This document shows, one piece after another, positions 36,881 through 53,874 of a stretch of DNA of 64,000 nucleotides. Numbering within the stretch: the stretch's first letter is position 1; each line of letters starts with the position of its first letter. The notes under the pieces were generated by a model that did not search any database, was not told the origin of the DNA, and saw nothing but the letters and a program-made list of their open reading frames with translations. Position numbers and translations under genes: made by a program. Source of the DNA: Candidatus Aminicenantales bacterium (GTDB lineage: Bacteria; Acidobacteriota; Aminicenantia; Aminicenantales; UBA4085). Location: positions 62,001 through 126,000 of the forward strand of contig JBEKTZ010000003.1 in assembly GCA_049515535.1 (NCBI GenBank), written 5' to 3'.

Positions 36881-37846
36881 ATGCCTAAGCCGAAATTCGC
36901 GCTTTACTGGGCGGCCAGCTGCGGCGGATGCGAGATCGCCTTCCTCGACATCCGGGAGAAGATCCTGGATTTCGACGCCGCCGCGGACCTGGTCTTCTGT
37001 CCTTGCCTCATGGATACCAAGTACAAGGACATCGAGGCGATGGCCGACGGCGAGATCGACGTGACGCTGTTCAACGGAGGCATCCGCAACGAGGAGAACC
37101 TGCACATCGCCAAGCTCCTCCGCCAGAAGTCCAAAGTCCTCGTCGCCTTCGGCTCCTGCGCCACGGAGGGCTGCATCCCCGGCCTAGCCAACCTCACAAC
37201 CACGGATGAGATCATGGATTACGTCTACCGCCGGTCGCCCTCCGTCGAAGCCGGCAACACGACACTTCCCCAGACGGTCACGGAAACGCCGACCGCGCAG
37301 CTGACCCTGCCGGCCCTGTTCGAAGTCCTGAGGCCGCTGGACCAGGTCGTCGACGTGGACTACCGGATGCCCGGCTGCCCGCCGGTGGCCGAACAGATCT
37401 GGGCGGTCGCCGAGGCCATCCTGACCAGCAAGCTGCCGCCCAAAGGGTCCCTGGTGGGGGTCAATCCCAAGACGGTCTGCGATGAATGCAAACGGACCAA
37501 GGAAGAAAAGAAGATCAAAGTGTTCCGCCGTCCCCACCTCGTCGACCCCCGGGACATCGATCCCGTCAAGTGTCTTTTGGAGCAGGGGATCATCTGCAAC
37601 GGTCCCGCCGTCCACGCGGGCTGCGGGGCTCTTTGCCCCCAGGTCAACCTGGGCTGCCGCGGCTGTTACGGCCCGGCCGACGGCATCCAGGACGTCGGGG
37701 CCAAACTCGCCGGGTCGATCGCCTCGATCATCGATAGCGACGACCCCGCCGAGATCCAAGCGGCCGTCGATCAGATCGTCGATCCGGTCGGCACGTTCTA
37801 CCGTTTCGGCCTGGCCGGATCGCTCGTGGGGAGGCGCGTGAGATGA
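36881..37846 (+). CDS. mvhG: Group 3c [NiFe] hydrogenase small subunit
   Basis: SCGGCE, FGSCA, PGCPP, VCDEC, CLLEQG.IC.GP, CGALCP..CRGCYG; no Tat signal. Confidence 0.92.
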
Positions 37847-39300
37847 AAACGATCACCATCGATCCCATCACCCGGCTCGAAGGCCACGGCAAGATCTCCA
37901 TCATCCTCGACGACGAGGGCAACGTCGCGGATGCCTTCCTCCAGATCCCCGAACTTCGCGGCTTCGAGAAGTTCTGCGTCGGCCGTCCGGTCGAGGAGAT
38001 GCCCCGGATCACGACGCGCATCTGCGGCGTCTGTCCGGAAGCGCACATGATGGCCTCGGCCAAGGCCTGCGACGCGGTCTATCACGTCGACCTGCCCCGC
38101 ACGGCCAAGCTCCTGCGGGAGCTTCTCTACGCCATCTTCTACGTGACCGACCATTCGACCCATTTCTACGCCCTGGGCGGGCCGGACTTTGTCATGGGCC
38201 CGGACGCCCCGGCGGCCCAGCGCAACATCCTGGGTGTCATCCACAAGGTGGGCGTCGAGATCGGCCGCAAGGTCATCGAAATGCGGGGCGCCTGCCACGA
38301 GCTCATCAAGATGATGGCCGGCAAATCGGTCCATCCCATCGGGGCCCTCCCCGGGGGGATGAGCAAGGGGATGAACCGCGAGGAGCGCGACAAAGTCCTC
38401 AAGACCGGGCAGGACGCGGTCGAGTTCGCCAAGTTCACCATCGGCCTGTTCAACCAGATCGTCCTGGGCAACAAGGCCTACGTCGACCTGATCCTGAGCG
38501 ACGGCTTCACCCACCACACCTACAACATGGGCCTGGTCGACGAACGGAACCACGTCAATTTCTACGACGGCGACATCCGCGTCACGGCCCCCGACGGGGG
38601 GGAGCTGGCCAAGTTCAAACCGGCCGATTACCTCCAGCACATCGTGGAACACGTCGAGCCCTGGTCCTATCTCAAGTTCCCCGTCCTCCGGAAGGTCGGC
38701 TGGAAGGGGCTCGTCGACGGCCCCCAGAGCGGCATCTACAAGGCGACACCGCTCTCCCGCCTCAACGTCTCCGACGGCATGGCCACACCCCTGGCCAACG
38801 AGGAACACGACCGGATGTACAAAACCTTGGGCGGGAAGCCCGTCCATCAGACGCTGGCGACCCACTGGGCCAGGCTGGTCGAGCTCCTCTACGCGGCCGA
38901 GCGCTGGGTGGAGCTGGCCTCCGACCCGGAGGTCACCGGCCCGGACTACCGTGTCGTCCCCGACCACACTCCCGACGAGGGCGTCGGCGTAGTCGAAGCG
39001 CCTCGGGGCACCCTGTATCATCATTACAAGACCGACATGCGGGGCATCGTCCAGGAAGTTAACTTGATCGTCGGGACGACCAACAATAACGCCGCCATCA
39101 ACCTCTCGGTGAAGAAGGCGGCCATGAACTTCATCAAGAAGGGTCACGTCACCGACGGGCTCCTGAACATCGTCGAGATGGCTTTCCGCGCCTATGACCC
39201 GTGCTTCGGCTGCGCCACGCACGCCTGGCCCGGCCAGGCGGCGATCCATATCCGGATTCTCGACCGTGAGGGAAACATCGTCCGTGACCTGAGGAGATAG
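37843..39300 (+). CDS. mvhA: Group 3c [NiFe] hydrogenase large subunit
   Basis: TRLEGHG, L1 RICGVC, EAPRG, L2 DPCFGCATH plus a cleavable C-terminal tail. Confidence 0.94.
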
Positions 39301-39308
39301 AGAAGGCC

Positions 39309-51674: not shown

Positions 51675-52226
51675 ATGGCCAAGACTGAGATCAAGATCGG
51701 CGGGTTCGGCGGCCAGGGAGTCATCCTGACCGGCTATATCATCGGTAAGGCCGCTTCGCTCTTCGACGGCAAGGACGCCACGATGACGCAGGCTTTCGGG
51801 CCGGAGGCCCGGGGCAGCGCCTGCAGCGCGCAGGTCATCATCTCCGACGGCGCCATCCGCTATCCTTACGTCAAGAAGCCGCAGGTTATGGTCATCATGA
51901 GCCAGGAGGCCTTCACCAACTTCTCTCCCGAGCTCGACCCGAACGGGATGATCCTCATCGAGGAGGAGCTGGTGAACCCTAAGGGGCTGCCCCCGACGGT
52001 AAAAATCCACGGCATCCCGGCGACGCGGATTGCCGAGGAGCTCGGCCGGAAGGTCGTCCTCAACATGGTCATGGCCGGGTTCTTCGCGGCCGTCAGCGGG
52101 CTCGTGTCCAAGGACGCCATGCGCAAGGCCGTCGAGAGCTCCGTGCCCAAGGGGACGGAGGGTCTGAACCTGCTGGCCTTCGAGAAGGGCTACGAGTACG
52201 GCCTGGGCAAAGTCCAGGCCCATTGA
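51675..52226 (+). CDS. korC: 2-oxoacid:ferredoxin oxidoreductase gamma subunit
   Basis: [15 protein letters not shown]. Confidence 0.88.
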
Positions 52227-52263
52227 TCCGGCACCGGACCGCCGGGCCGAGGGAGGGAGAATA

Positions 52264-53874
52264 ATGCCAGATTTCGTCTACACGCCCATGTTTGCTTTGG
52301 GACCGGACACGACCGAATACGATGCGATTTCCCGGGACCATGTGGCCTTCGGCGAATGCGAGGGGCGACCGGTTCTCAAGGTCGCGCCCGAAGGACTGGC
52401 CCTCCTGGCCGAACGCGCCTTCCATGACGTGGCCTTTCGGCTGAGGCCGTCGCACCTCGAGCAGCTGGCCGCGATCCTCAAGGACCCGGAGAGCTCGGCC
52501 AACGACCGCTACGTCGCCCTGGAGATGCTGAAGAACGCCGTCATCTCGGCCGAAGGCGTCTTCCCGATGTGCCAGGACACAGGGACGGCCATCATCAACG
52601 CCAAGAAAGGCCAGCGGGTCTGGACGGGCGGCGGCGACGAAGAGGCCCTCTCCCGCGGCGTTTTCAACGCCTACACTAAGAATTATTTCCGCTATTCCCA
52701 GAACGCCGCGCTGACGATGTACGACGAGAAGAACACCGGGACGAACCTGCCCGCCCAGATCGACATCACCGCCGTCGACGGCGACGAGTACGGGTTCCTG
52801 TTCATCTCCAAGGGCGGCGGTTCCGCCAACAAGACCTATCTCTTCCAGGAGACCAAGGCCGTCCTCAACCCGGAAGCCCTGCAGAAATTTCTCGTCGGCA
52901 AGATGAAGGGGATCGGCACTGCGGCCTGCCCGCCCTACCATCTGGCCGTCGTCGTCGGCGGCACGTCGGCCGAGCTCGTCCTCAAAACCGTGAAGCTCGC
53001 CTCGGCCCGCTATCTCGACCACCTGCCGACGACGGGAGGGCCGGGAAGCCACGCTTTCCGCGACATCGAACTCGAGGCGAAGCTCCTCGAGGCCTCCCAT
53101 AAAATCGGGCTGGGGGCCGGTTTCGGAGGCAAGTATTTCTGCCTCGACGTCCGAGTCATCCGCCTACCCCGCCACGGCGCCTCCTGCCCGATCGGGATGG
53201 GCGTCAGCTGCAACGCCGACCGGAACATCAAGGCCAAGATCACCCGCGACGGCATCTTCCTTGAAAAGCTCGAGAAGGACCCGGCCAAGTACCTCCCCCA
53301 GCCCGCCGCGACCGATATTCCCGCCGTCCCGGTCAACCTCAACCGGCCGATGTCCGAGATCCGGGCAACGCTCAGCAAGCATCCCGTGGCCACCCTGCTC
53401 ATGCTCAACGGTCCGATCATCGTCGCCCGCGACATCGCCCACGCCAAGCTCAAGGAAAAGGTCGACAGGGGCGAGGACCTCCCGGTCTATTTCAAGGACC
53501 ACATCATCTATTACGCCGGCCCGGCCAAAACCCCGCCCGGCTATCCTTCCGGGTCCTTCGGCCCGACGACGGCCGGCCGCATGGACGACTACGTGCCCCT
53601 TTTCCAGAAGATGGGCGGGTCGCTGGTCATGCTGGCCAAGGGGAACCGTTCCAAGGGTGTGACCGAGTCGTGCAAGACGAACGGCGGCTTCTATCTCGGC
53701 TCGATCGGCGGGCCTGCCGCCCGCCTGGCCCGGGATTGCATCACCAGCCAGGCGGTCGTGGCCTACCCCGAGCTCGGGATGGAGGCCATCTTCAAGATCA
53801 CGGTCAAGGATTTCCCGGCCTTCATCATCGTCGACGACAAGGGGAACGACTTCTTCGAAAAAATCCTGACCTAA
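52264..53874 (+). CDS. fumA: Class I (Fe-S) fumarate hydratase
   Basis: [39 protein letters not shown]. Confidence 0.95.

Follow-up and report, generated by a model that had tools for sequence, protein, structure and literature searches.

Several published gene clusters combine genes of a heterodisulfide reductase (Hdr) with those of a fumarate reductase. In Ca. Celaenobacter (Cloacimonadota) a single cluster holds the genes for a thiol:fumarate reductase (TFR), a 2-oxoglutarate:ferredoxin oxidoreductase (OGOR), fumarate hydratase, succinyl-CoA synthetase, a group 3c Mvh hydrogenase and Hdr; ATP-citrate lyase (ACL) is encoded elsewhere, together with aconitase and isocitrate dehydrogenase, and an H2-driven reductive tricarboxylic acid (rTCA) cycle was inferred from the genome (Williams et al. 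2021, PMC8542988). The rTCA cluster of Ca. Endoriftia, the Escarpia symbiont and Thioflavicoccus mobilis has flxABCD-hdrABC interspersed with korABCD, plus tfrAB, and its authors propose direct bifurcation to OGOR and fumarate reductase (Rubin-Blum et al. 2019, PMC6315080); co-expression data exist for the Flx-Hdr, kor and tfr genes (Mitchell et al. 2024, PMC11636981). The 'succinate operon' of Pseudoclostridium thermosuccinogenes is described as consisting of fumarate hydratase, Flx-Hdr (7 genes) and fumarate reductase (2 genes), and the same paper cites a preprint (10.20944/preprints201912.0288.v1) for a proposed electron bifurcation, by which the formation of succinate would be coupled to the reduction of ferredoxin (Koendjbiharie et al. 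2020, PMC7282089). The present work deals with a comparable operon at positions 36881-53874 of a 64-kb window (i.e. the whole stretch of 64,000 nucleotides that was analysed, G000:C3:62001-126000) from the 3.45-Mb, 94% complete genome of an Aminicenantes bacterium.

The operon consists of 16 co-directional open reading frames (ORFs) on the plus strand, in the order mvhG-mvhA-ackA-Cys-rich-HEAT-hdrC-hdrB-hdrA-mvhD-frdB-like-frdA-like-korD-korA-korB-korC-fumA, where kor denotes a 2-oxoacid:ferredoxin oxidoreductase (KOR). With moderate confidence we read it as a cytoplasmic, quinone-independent, H2-driven electron-bifurcating fumarate reductase that feeds KOR. MvhA and MvhG would oxidise H2, and MvhD would relay the electrons to the flavin adenine dinucleotide (FAD) of HdrA. 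The high-potential electron would then pass through HdrC to the CCG clusters of HdrB and straight into the iron-sulfur (FeS) chain of FrdB, and from there to the non-covalent FAD of FrdA, where fumarate would be reduced to succinate. The low-potential electron would exit at HdrA's ferredoxin-like domain; it would be taken up by a ferredoxin or reach KorD directly, and would so drive the carboxylation of succinyl-CoA to 2-oxoglutarate by KOR. Together with FumA and SucCD this would give the route malate > fumarate > succinate > succinyl-CoA > 2-oxoglutarate, which could be a reductive TCA branch or part of a full reverse cycle. We infer all the electron-transfer steps, the bifurcation, the substrate of KOR and the direction of the flux. 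An earlier note on this stretch had favoured the same forward direction, with H2 electrons split between fumarate and KOR without quinones, and the comparative and modelling evidence given below supports it in silico.

The same note implied that such a cluster was new, which does not hold, since the combination of Mvh, Hdr, TFR, OGOR, fumarase and SucCD, with the same reading, is described for Ca. Celaenobacter (PMC8542988). The two have the same enzyme set in one cluster, citrate-cleavage genes elsewhere in the genome and the same interpretation as an H2-driven, Mvh-Hdr-based rTCA system. They differ in phylum, and the paper keeps CoM-S-S-CoB (the heterodisulfide of coenzymes M and B) as acceptor and, in the passages on the cluster, proposes no direct wire; those passages do not mention AckA, Cys-rich or HEAT proteins, and the likeness is one of description, not of sequence or gene order. 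We regard the operon as the Aminicenantes case, with extra accessory genes, of a linkage that is already in print as genome inference. Our literature search found, among the papers listed, no description of the cluster in Aminicenantes and no use of the exact phrase 'electron-bifurcating fumarate reductase'; in agreement with the note, it turned up no biochemically characterised bacterial complex of this form. What is new here is that the Mvh and Flx forms are mutually exclusive within one order, that the Frd pair is the sole one in its genome and has an invariant Asn at the covalent-FAD position, and that a FrdB-HdrB contact is predicted, which argues for a direct wire.

The question bears on the electron acceptor of the very common Hdr/MvhD complexes outside the methanogens, and on the way in which strict anaerobes meet the energy cost of the carboxylation step of the reverse TCA cycle that depends on ferredoxin. 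If the reading is true, fumarate reduction would directly pay for 2-oxoglutarate synthesis, without membranes or quinones.

The Hdr module, the Frd pair and their predicted contact

Protein families were assigned by Pfam and NCBIfam profile searches, and the curated NCBIfam cut-offs are quoted throughout (Table 1). All six MvhAGD-HdrABC subunit types are encoded together within 36881-46869. Their ligands are intact, i.e. the NiFe CxxC pairs (read by eye in MvhA as an N-terminal RICGVC and a C-terminal DPCFGC), the two CCG motifs of HdrB and the 2x4 Cys of HdrC; 10 Cys of HdrB and 8 of HdrC are invariant in 32/32 sequences. Pfam finds Fer4 domains and the FAD dinucleotide-binding motif region in HdrA, the presumed site of bifurcation. 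MvhD matches the C-terminal part (647-774) of the HdrA2 model, so that HdrA and MvhD together cover it. In these respects the operon resembles the methanogen MvhAGD-HdrABC complexes (PDB 5odc, 8rvu, 7bkb, 9sfi), from which it differs in being bacterial, in that all the equivalog scores stay below their cut-offs, and in its proposed acceptor, which is fumarate via FrdAB instead of the heterodisulfide.

The FrdB-like protein has no CCG domain. Pfam returns Fer4 matches only, and the [2Fe-2S] motif was read from the sequence; C57, C62, C65, C83, C128, C131, C134, C138, C166, C169, C172 and C176 are invariant in 32/32 homologues. The third FeS cluster of quinone-linked enzymes is of the three-Cys type; that of FrdB is of the four-Cys type, because the protein has two CxxCxxCxxxCP motifs with invariant Cys.

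The best model for the FrdA-like flavoprotein is TfrA (364.3 bits against a cut-off of 718, model positions 6-421 of 546), and there is no match to Succ_DH_flav_C (PF02910). The residues H326, P327, T328 (the HPT motif), R346, H440 and R474 align with those of the solved mycobacterial SdhA (7d6v_A), i.e. the catalytic HPT, Arg, His and Arg of the dicarboxylate site of FrdABCD and SdhABCD are kept. N132 aligns with a His of 7d6v_A that we take to be the covalent-FAD ligand. A comparison of 11 diverse family members shows all these residues, including N132, to be the same in every one; each of the 11 also has the N-terminal extension of about 95 residues, and none has the C-terminal Sdh domain. 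The pair thus differs from FrdABCD and SdhABCD in the covalent-FAD His, in Succ_DH_flav_C and in the membrane anchor, and it belongs to a distinct soluble subfamily of the fumarate reductase type.

The earlier note had seen no SdhC/D or FrdC/D anchor near the operon, and the same is found at the level of the 94%-complete genome, in which no match to Sdh_cyt (PF01127), Fumarate_red_C (PF02300) or Fumarate_red_D (PF02313) was detected. The only full-length FAD_binding_2 proteins of the genome are the FrdA-like protein and a NadB, which leaves the Frd pair as the only candidate for the fumarate/succinate step. Two weak Fer2_3 matches occur elsewhere (ORFs of 169 and 246 aa), and there is no second Sdh/Frd flavoprotein to pair with them. 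The possibility, raised in the note, that the flavoprotein is an L-aspartate oxidase was rejected: it scores 278.4 bits on the NadB model TIGR00551 (cut-off 452.75), and the true NadB (492.9 bits) is encoded elsewhere, next to nadC.

A wider form of this objection is that the Frd pair, fed by Hdr, acts on some other substrate, either in the manner of an L-aspartate oxidase or on another enoate or 2-enoyl compound. It would fit the scores, as the TfrA, SdhA/FrdA and NadB models are all below cut-off, as well as the unusual N-terminal extension, the missing C-terminal domain and the presence of urocanate reductase among the PDB relatives of the FrdA-like protein. Nevertheless we consider it very improbable: the substrate-binding and catalytic residues match those of a solved SdhA, NadB is a separate protein and no other fumarate/succinate candidate is encoded, and a fumA-like gene, kor or sucCD accompanies the pair in 21, 17 and 6, respectively, of the 80 loci described below. 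Moreover, the like-named gene set of P. thermosuccinogenes, likened here by gene names alone, is called a 'succinate operon' (PMC7282089).

Two known enzymes are informative about how FrdB and HdrB could be related. TfrAB of Methanothermobacter is reported to be a thiol:fumarate reductase (Heim et al. 1998, as cited in PMC6315080 and PMC8542988). TfrA is the best flavoprotein model for the operon, and the methanogen TfrB model of NCBIfam aligns with both the FrdB-like protein and HdrB, which together look like a split TfrB; the FeS and CCG parts are on separate genes in the operon and on one polypeptide in TfrB. The operon differs further in that its FrdA does not reach the TfrA cut-off, carries the N-terminal extension and lacks the C-terminal domain, and in that its probable electron donor is Hdr instead of free thiols. 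A natural fusion, P0125 (727 aa), has a FrdB-like FeS protein at the N-terminus of a FrdA-like flavoprotein. Taken with the TfrB alignment, the fusion would provide Rosetta-stone support for an association of FrdB, FrdA and HdrB. The other enzyme is the type E succinate:quinone reductase (SQR) or methylmenaquinol:fumarate reductase (MFR), in which the HdrB-like SdhE partners SdhB. There is thus an evolutionary precedent for a protein of the FrdB type in contact with one that carries CCG domains; on the SdhE model of MFR, HdrB reaches 134.8 bits, nearly equal to its 148 bits on HdrB proper. The type E enzymes sit on the surface of the membrane and are coupled to quinones, whereas the operon has no anchor and includes HdrA and MvhD.

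The complex modelling suggested in the earlier note was run as HdrB + HdrC + FrdB, with a 32-row alignment of its own for each chain and FrdB as the scored partner. The median interface score (ipSAE) was 0.84 (0.83, 0.84 and 0.86 in the three runs), as compared to 0.02 for the best control. The three runs share at least 94% of the contacts, and the predicted local confidence (pLDDT) of the partner is at least 78. When the tool was calibrated, this mark was reached by 116 of 157 complexes of solved structure and by 2 of 215 pairs that were mismatched, figures that apply only roughly to a fold with own alignments and three chains. In the predicted interface, FrdB 126-136 (with C128, C131 and C134) lies against HdrB 10-15 and 40-45 (with C11, C43 and C44); FrdB 141-155 also takes part and the C-terminus of HdrC is in contact. 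According to the model, the first [4Fe-4S] motif of FrdB would thus sit on the N-terminal CCG cluster site of HdrB, and the fold supports binding of FrdB to HdrB/HdrC. A profile search found HdrB-like chains of the PDB in methanogen Hdr complexes only, so the result is unlikely to come from a solved look-alike; no FrdB/SdhB-like chain in those entries matched the FrdB profile.

The predicted contact bears directly on an alternative in which there is no wired complex. Mvh-Hdr would reduce a diffusible disulfide (that of a low-molecular-weight thiol pair or a DsrC-like protein), the Frd pair, with or without HdrBC, would re-oxidise the thiol, KOR would work on free ferredoxin, and the genes would merely be co-regulated. 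The methanogen TfrAB does use CoM-SH and CoB-SH, and the HdrB CCG cysteines, the disulfide site in methanogens, are fully conserved here. On the other hand, these cysteines are needed for cluster binding either way, FrdB has no CCG domain, and with a single HdrBC in the operon, which is also the only stand-alone HdrB-size CCG protein of the genome, one HdrB would need to serve as producer and as consumer of the thiol. The model in turn places the first [4Fe-4S] motif of FrdB directly on the N-terminal CCG site of HdrB. Both published genome readings keep the thiol option open (PMC8542988, PMC6315080). The genome also contains a homologue of ComA, (2R)-phospho-3-sulfolactate synthase (294 bits; positions 6565-7404 of L138, G000:C4:273000-287000), which could be taken as a sign of coenzyme M synthesis. 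It stands alone, with no other genes of the coenzyme M pathway beside it, and the ComA family also matches in the Bacillus and Corynebacterium controls, bacteria that do not make coenzyme M. We dropped it as support for a thiol relay because it has no com neighbours. On balance we consider the relay rather unlikely and prefer the direct wire from HdrB to FrdB.

Conservation of the gene order and the FrdA tree

Sixty-one related genomes were searched for the flavoprotein (E <= 1e-60), which was found in 37, and 20 loci were mapped by tblastn. Two forms can be distinguished. Six genomes (G000, G003, G025, G028, G041 and G042) have one that is 86-96% identical to the operon FrdA, the remaining ones have one that is 52-65% identical, and none of the genomes searched has both. 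The full 16-gene order is kept in L031 and L032; L033 starts inside hdrB and has the same order onward, and a further relative, the DNA of which begins inside mvhA, keeps the order in all but mvhG. Parts of it are seen in most of 100 related loci examined.

A second arrangement (type B, as opposed to type A, the Mvh form) is found in 16 of the 20 loci. Here the order is hdrC-hdrB-korD-korA-korB-korC-hdrA-mvhD-...-frdB-frdA, i.e. kor separates hdrB from hdrA. Thirteen of the 16 loci have, between mvhD and frdB, some 3 kb of DNA with genes for three Flx-like proteins, which take the place of the hydrogenase genes. In L035 their products are an FeS protein that is FrhB/FdhB-like, a Fer4_22 protein and a protein with NAD_binding_1 and DHODB_Fe-S_bind domains, which is the make-up of FlxC, FlxB and FlxA. 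Three other type-B loci (L039, L043 and L049) have hdrCB-korDABC-hdrA-mvhD followed by frdBA, with no Flx-like or hydrogenase genes in view; their MvhD is 66-69% identical to that of the operon, as compared to 48-52% in the other type-B loci. The frdBA genes adjoin hdr/mvhD in 19 of the 20 loci, and the twentieth (L040) ends after frdB. Within one order of bacteria the same Hdr-Frd-Kor core is thus paired either with a hydrogenase or with an NADH-type module.

The type-B loci, with kor among the hdr genes and frdBA thereafter, resemble the arrangement described for Ca. Endoriftia and its like, in which tfrBA follow (PMC6315080). The input in that system is NADH via Flx, not H2 via MvhAG, and the operon has kor after frdA and not inside hdr. 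The support given for the Endoriftia-type system is expression data, not biochemistry (PMC11636981).

Across phyla, a pattern scan with one genome per species gave at least 600 matched stretches; of the 600 examined, 578 encode a relative. The best 80 of the 578 (52-93% identical to the query) were analysed, and their neighbours were called by tblastn with the operon proteins at a coverage of at least 40%. The sources include Aminicenantes, metagenome-assembled genomes (MAGs) of the Desulfobacterota type, Dehalococcoidia, Anaerolineae, many Clostridia, Thermoplasmata, Theionarchaea, Culexarchaeum and others. The frdB gene lies beside frdA in 79 of the 80 loci and any hdr or mvhD gene is present in 67 (hdrB or hdrC in 60, hdrA in 54, mvhD in 53). 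The other modules are less frequent: flxA or flxB in 36 loci, a fumA-like gene in 21, korA or korB in 17, sucC or sucD in 6 and mvhA or mvhG in 5. Where 5 kb or more of DNA is available upstream, frdBA stands beside hdr/mvhD in 57 of 59 loci, and 11 of the 13 loci without hdr/mvhD have less than 5 kb upstream of frdA. The worry expressed in the earlier note, that the Frd pair might rarely be syntenic with hdr/mvh, is thus not borne out.

All 5 mvhAG loci among the 80 also carry kor; they come from one Aminicenantes, one further bacterium, two Thermoplasmata and one Spirochaetaceae. Eight loci (L059, L062, L071, L074, L081, L083, L089 and L093) have a minimal hdrC-hdrB-frdB-frdA unit that looks, as far as the gene content goes, like a split TfrAB. 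Many Clostridia MAGs and the isolate Ohessyouella blattaphilus PAL227 (L109) have hdrB-hdrC-hdrA-mvhD-flxCBA-frdB-frdA, in part followed by a fumA-like gene. By description, the architecture of the P. thermosuccinogenes operon matches these loci; its input is NADH, it has no KOR, and it serves fermentative succinate production (PMC7282089). Many gut Clostridia, one or more isolates among them, have the Frd subfamily in their Flx-Hdr operons, so that its biochemistry is testable in culture.

The closest FrdA relatives outside Aminicenantes (65-78% identity, among the best 80 of 578) are in nine loci, L054-L058, L061, L067, L070 and L072, from MAGs labelled as Deltaproteobacteria, Thermodesulfobacteriota, Syntrophaceae, Syntrophorhabdus, Deferrisomatales and Dehalococcoidales. 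Here FrdA stands behind at least two HdrA-like genes, HdrCB and MvhD, mostly with an FrhB/FdhB-like gene in addition, and some of the loci have sucCD downstream. The multi-HdrA arrangement would be a third type of input module.

A FastTree tree was made from 95 FrdA sequences and rooted on the genome's NadB; 6 of 101 sequences were dropped because of a coverage below 90% or an internal stop. The operon FrdA falls in a nine-leaf clade (support 0.993), the sister of which consists of loci labelled Deltaproteobacteria and Dehalococcoidales (parent support 1.0). The Flx form of the order is a separate clade of 22 leaves (support 0.988). The other mvh loci are in an archaea-rich clade (support 0.999), well apart from that of the operon. 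As mvh loci occur in two separated FrdA clades, the input module has probably changed more than once. The Frd form of the operon looks, from this topology, as if it had been acquired sideways.

Transcription was approached through contigs from four metatranscriptome runs of one sediment study, most of which are 90-95% identical to the operon and therefore come from relatives. One contig (X3 record 20) spans hdrA-mvhD-frdB, a second (X4 record 28) frdB-frdA-korD-korA and a third (X4 record 30) korA-korB-korC-fumA. They are compatible with transcription across these junctions; the depth of the contigs and the parts left uncovered are not informative for the operon itself.

KOR, energetics and the direction of electron flow

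KorDABC comprises four subunits (alpha, beta, gamma and delta) with the domains POR_N, PFOR_II, TPP_enzyme_C, POR and Fer4. It is probably specific for 2-oxoglutarate, which is favoured by the context of sucCD, frd and fumA. Another part of the genome, L136 (G000:C1:360000-377000), carries a citrate-cleavage cluster (genes at about 2882-11156, minus strand) that encodes a SucC-like protein of 515 aa with the citrate-binding domain of ATP-citrate lyase, a SucD-like protein of 322 aa, a citryl-CoA lyase of 259 aa (268.8 bits, NCBIfam cut-off 245), two large subunits of the aconitase/homoaconitase family and a protein of the isocitrate/homoisocitrate dehydrogenase family. Citryl-CoA lyase is found in 50 of the 61 related genomes. 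The cluster may provide two-step citrate cleavage for the reverse TCA cycle in Aminicenantia, and with these genes in the genome a full reverse cycle is possible.

The redox potentials of the partners are -414 mV for H2, about +30 mV for fumarate/succinate, about -500 mV for ferredoxin and -140 mV for the heterodisulfide. Given these values, the reaction of 2 H2 with fumarate and oxidised ferredoxin is strongly exergonic, and fumarate is a better high-potential acceptor than the heterodisulfide of methanogens.

The same values speak about the reverse direction, which the earlier note had offered as a second reading. In that case 2-oxoglutarate and succinate would be oxidised and the electrons confurcated at HdrA to H2, in a fermentative or syntrophic mode of life. 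In principle every enzyme other than Frd can run both ways, a fermentative lifestyle is suggested by pta at 63474-63974 and by the ackA of the operon, and close relatives of FrdA (72-78% identity) are found in MAGs of Syntrophaceae, Syntrophorhabdus and Syntrophobacterales. However, the mean of the potentials of succinate and ferredoxin lies far above that of H2, and the reaction would be endergonic even at about 1 Pa H2. In addition, Asn occupies the position of the covalent-FAD His in all 11 family members compared, and E. coli FrdA His44 mutants, the FAD of which is non-covalent, are reported to reduce fumarate and not to oxidise succinate. We consider the reverse direction very improbable.

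A different simplification would keep the direction and give up the bifurcation, i.e. the complex would be an H2:fumarate oxidoreductase with HdrA as a mere wire, no ferredoxin would be reduced, and KOR would be supplied elsewhere. H2-driven fumarate reduction is exergonic by itself, sequence cannot reveal bifurcation, and kor is absent from 63 of the 80 loci. Against this stand the full length of HdrA (821 bits on HdrA2), in which both the FAD domain and the ferredoxin-like domain are kept, the retention of hdrA in 54 of the 80 loci, and the insertion of kor between hdrB and hdrA in 16 loci of the order. In our judgement the non-bifurcating enzyme is improbable, and we keep to the bifurcating one.

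We note that a number of points weigh against the bifurcating, KOR-feeding enzyme that we prefer. All the methanogen equivalogs of NCBIfam (VhuA, VhuG, HdrA, HdrB, HdrC and TfrA) score below cut-off, HdrA for example with 623 bits against 1400, so that the functional assignments bridge a wide evolutionary gap; the Vhu and Hdr models are tuned to methanogens. The 2-oxoglutarate-specific models of KorB and KorD (61 bits against a cut-off of 125 for the latter) are also below cut-off. The kor genes are present in only 17 of the 80 loci, so KOR is a partner that the system can do without, and free ferredoxin may be all that it uses. Two loci, L065 and L097, have frdBA without any hdr gene in spite of 10 kb of upstream DNA each. 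The fold covers FrdB without FrdA and without the clusters, was made with own alignments and says nothing on affinity. The RNA contigs come from relatives and from one study, the libraries may hold DNA, and a contig does not prove one transcript. The reading gives the AckA, Cys-rich and HEAT proteins of the operon no definite role. Finally, the literature search turned up neither biochemical nor genetic evidence for the cluster or for any relative of it.

A bolder combination of claims is put forward only tentatively, as possible: that the sixteen genes encode a hard-wired megacomplex, that fumarate is the acceptor of many 'orphan' Hdr complexes, and that Mvh and Flx are interchangeable cassettes. 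In such a particle one HdrA flavin would split the H2-derived pair, one electron going via HdrC, HdrB and FrdB to fumarate and the other directly into KorD/KOR, without free ferredoxin or a thiol carrier. If this were true, two redox steps that follow one another in the reverse TCA cycle, the most exergonic one and the most endergonic one, would be coupled in one particle, and the 'orphan' Hdr complexes with fumarate as acceptor would include both bacterial and archaeal ones.

Layout of the operon, accessory proteins and surroundings

The earlier note had described 16 co-directional genes with short gaps or overlaps, and a check of the window finds every ORF on the plus strand at the positions given there. 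According to the ORF coordinates, the widest intergenic gap is 54 nt (between the HEAT gene and hdrC) and there are 7 overlaps: 4 nt each for mvhG/mvhA, hdrB/hdrA, hdrA/mvhD and korD/korA, 13 nt for korA/korB, 8 nt for mvhD/frdB, an overlap that the note had also pointed out, and 41 nt between the Cys-rich gene and the longest HEAT ORF, where the HEAT gene may simply start later. The spacing and the overlaps are those of operon-like packing, which we count in favour of the reading proposed here.

Table 1. Positions of the operon genes and of features upstream of them (window coordinates), with the profile matches of their products
Feature	Position	Strand	Remarks
sucD	33625-34503	-	succinyl-CoA synthetase; Pfam CoA_binding and Ligase_CoA
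sucC	34525-35769	-	succinyl-CoA synthetase; Pfam ATP-grasp_2 and Ligase_CoA
sigma-70-like promoter match	36623-36651	+	TTGACA, 17-nt spacer, TATAGT; 11/12 positions; 230 nt upstream of mvhG
mvhG	36881-37846	+	[NiFe] hydrogenase small subunit; Oxidored_q6 86.7 bits; VhuG 211.6 bits (cut-off 450)
mvhA	37843-39300	+	[NiFe] hydrogenase large subunit, group-3c-like; NiFeSe_Hases; VhuA 407.6 bits (cut-off 800)
ackA	39309-40706	+	acetate/propionate kinase; Acetate_kinase 505.7 bits, residues 2-386 of 465; TIGR00016 517 bits (cut-off 293)
Cys-rich ('V4R-like')	40718-41215	+	165 aa; start set by homologue length
HEAT-repeat	41175-43052	+	625 aa; HEAT_2 286 bits in 8 stretches
hdrC	43107-43514	+	two [4Fe-4S] clusters; Fer4_17, dicluster; CoB_CoM_SS_C 74 bits (HdrC cut-off 160)
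hdrB	43518-44456	+	two CCG domains; CCG in 2 stretches; CoB_CoM_SS_B 148 bits (HdrB cut-off 345)
hdrA	44453-46429	+	flavin and FeS subunit; HdrA2 821 bits, model positions 1-641 of 777
mvhD	46426-46869	+	[2Fe-2S] connector; FlpD 169.5 bits
frdB-like	46862-47641	+	FeS subunit; [2Fe-2S] CxxxxCxxC...C and two CxxCxxCxxxCP motifs
frdA-like	47645-49318	+	flavoprotein; FAD_binding_2 259 bits, residues 96-480
korD	49339-49617	+	subunit of 2-oxoacid:ferredoxin oxidoreductase
korA	49614-50783	+	NF006412 547.5 bits (cut-off 411, exceeded)
korB	50771-51673	+	2-oxoglutarate-specific model 240 bits (cut-off 364)
korC	51675-52226	+	subunit of 2-oxoacid:ferredoxin oxidoreductase
fumA	52264-53874	+	class I fumarate hydratase; Fumerase and Fumerase_C; NF011920 857 bits (cut-off 1094)

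AckA carries a C-terminal tail of about 73 residues beyond the kinase domain. Of the loci compared, the Aminicenantes type-A ones L031, L032 and L051 have the gene, and the otherwise similar L053 lacks it.

The Cys-rich protein has no match in Pfam or NCBIfam. It has 305 homologues, the listed ones of which are 156-171 aa long and nearly all 165 aa, so its start is most likely at 40718. Six Cys and His104 are invariant in 17/17 sequences. The predicted model (pLDDT 84) has its best PDB folds in H-NOX and in TRAPP Bet3, with TMq values of 0.5-0.6, a moderate likeness only; the label 'V4R-like' used in the earlier note is therefore a reasonable fold class, though an unproven one. A lead from the Atlas to an ATC_hydrolase-like cluster was not confirmed by Pfam. 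The protein could be a cofactor-binding accessory or a sensor.

The HEAT protein is possibly a scaffold. Its match to PRK13800, a FrdA-HEAT fusion model, was rejected as a link to Frd, since it covers the HEAT region only and any HEAT protein would match. The Cys-rich and HEAT genes adjoin mvhAG in L031, L032, L051 and L053, and in the bacterial clade the Cys-rich gene is always beside the HEAT gene and mvhAG.

Upstream of the operon, sucCD are divergent neighbours, as the earlier note had it, and their Pfam matches lie on the minus strand. The sucC gene adjoins mvhG also in G028 (L031), where the spacer is about 245 nt long as compared to 1.1 kb here (35770-36880). The spacer holds only two short inverted repeats and is single-copy in the genome; its small ORFs have no Pfam match, and no conservation in related loci was seen at the blastn level. 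Promoter-type sites in the region number 5 against 2.8 +/- 1.8 in shuffles, which is not above chance, and we regard the 11/12 match of Table 1 as a lead only. The totals of the promoter and terminator scan were likewise not above those of shuffles. An Rfam scan of the whole window returned only one tRNA (18699-18786).

Directly upstream of sucD, at 31196-33642, lie the genes of a Cache/HAMP histidine kinase and a response regulator. On the other side, convergent with fumA, the minus strand at 54037-62388 encodes an NfnB/GltD-like protein, an NfnA-like protein, a molybdopterin/NuoG-like protein of 779 aa that is formate-dehydrogenase-like, a NuoF-GltD fusion of 1028 aa and NuoE. By their look, these genes form another soluble module for NAD(P)H/formate beside the operon, which may also bifurcate. 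Near the end of the window a fragment of a Mutator-family transposase (63082-63426) precedes pta, the end of which lies in the window.

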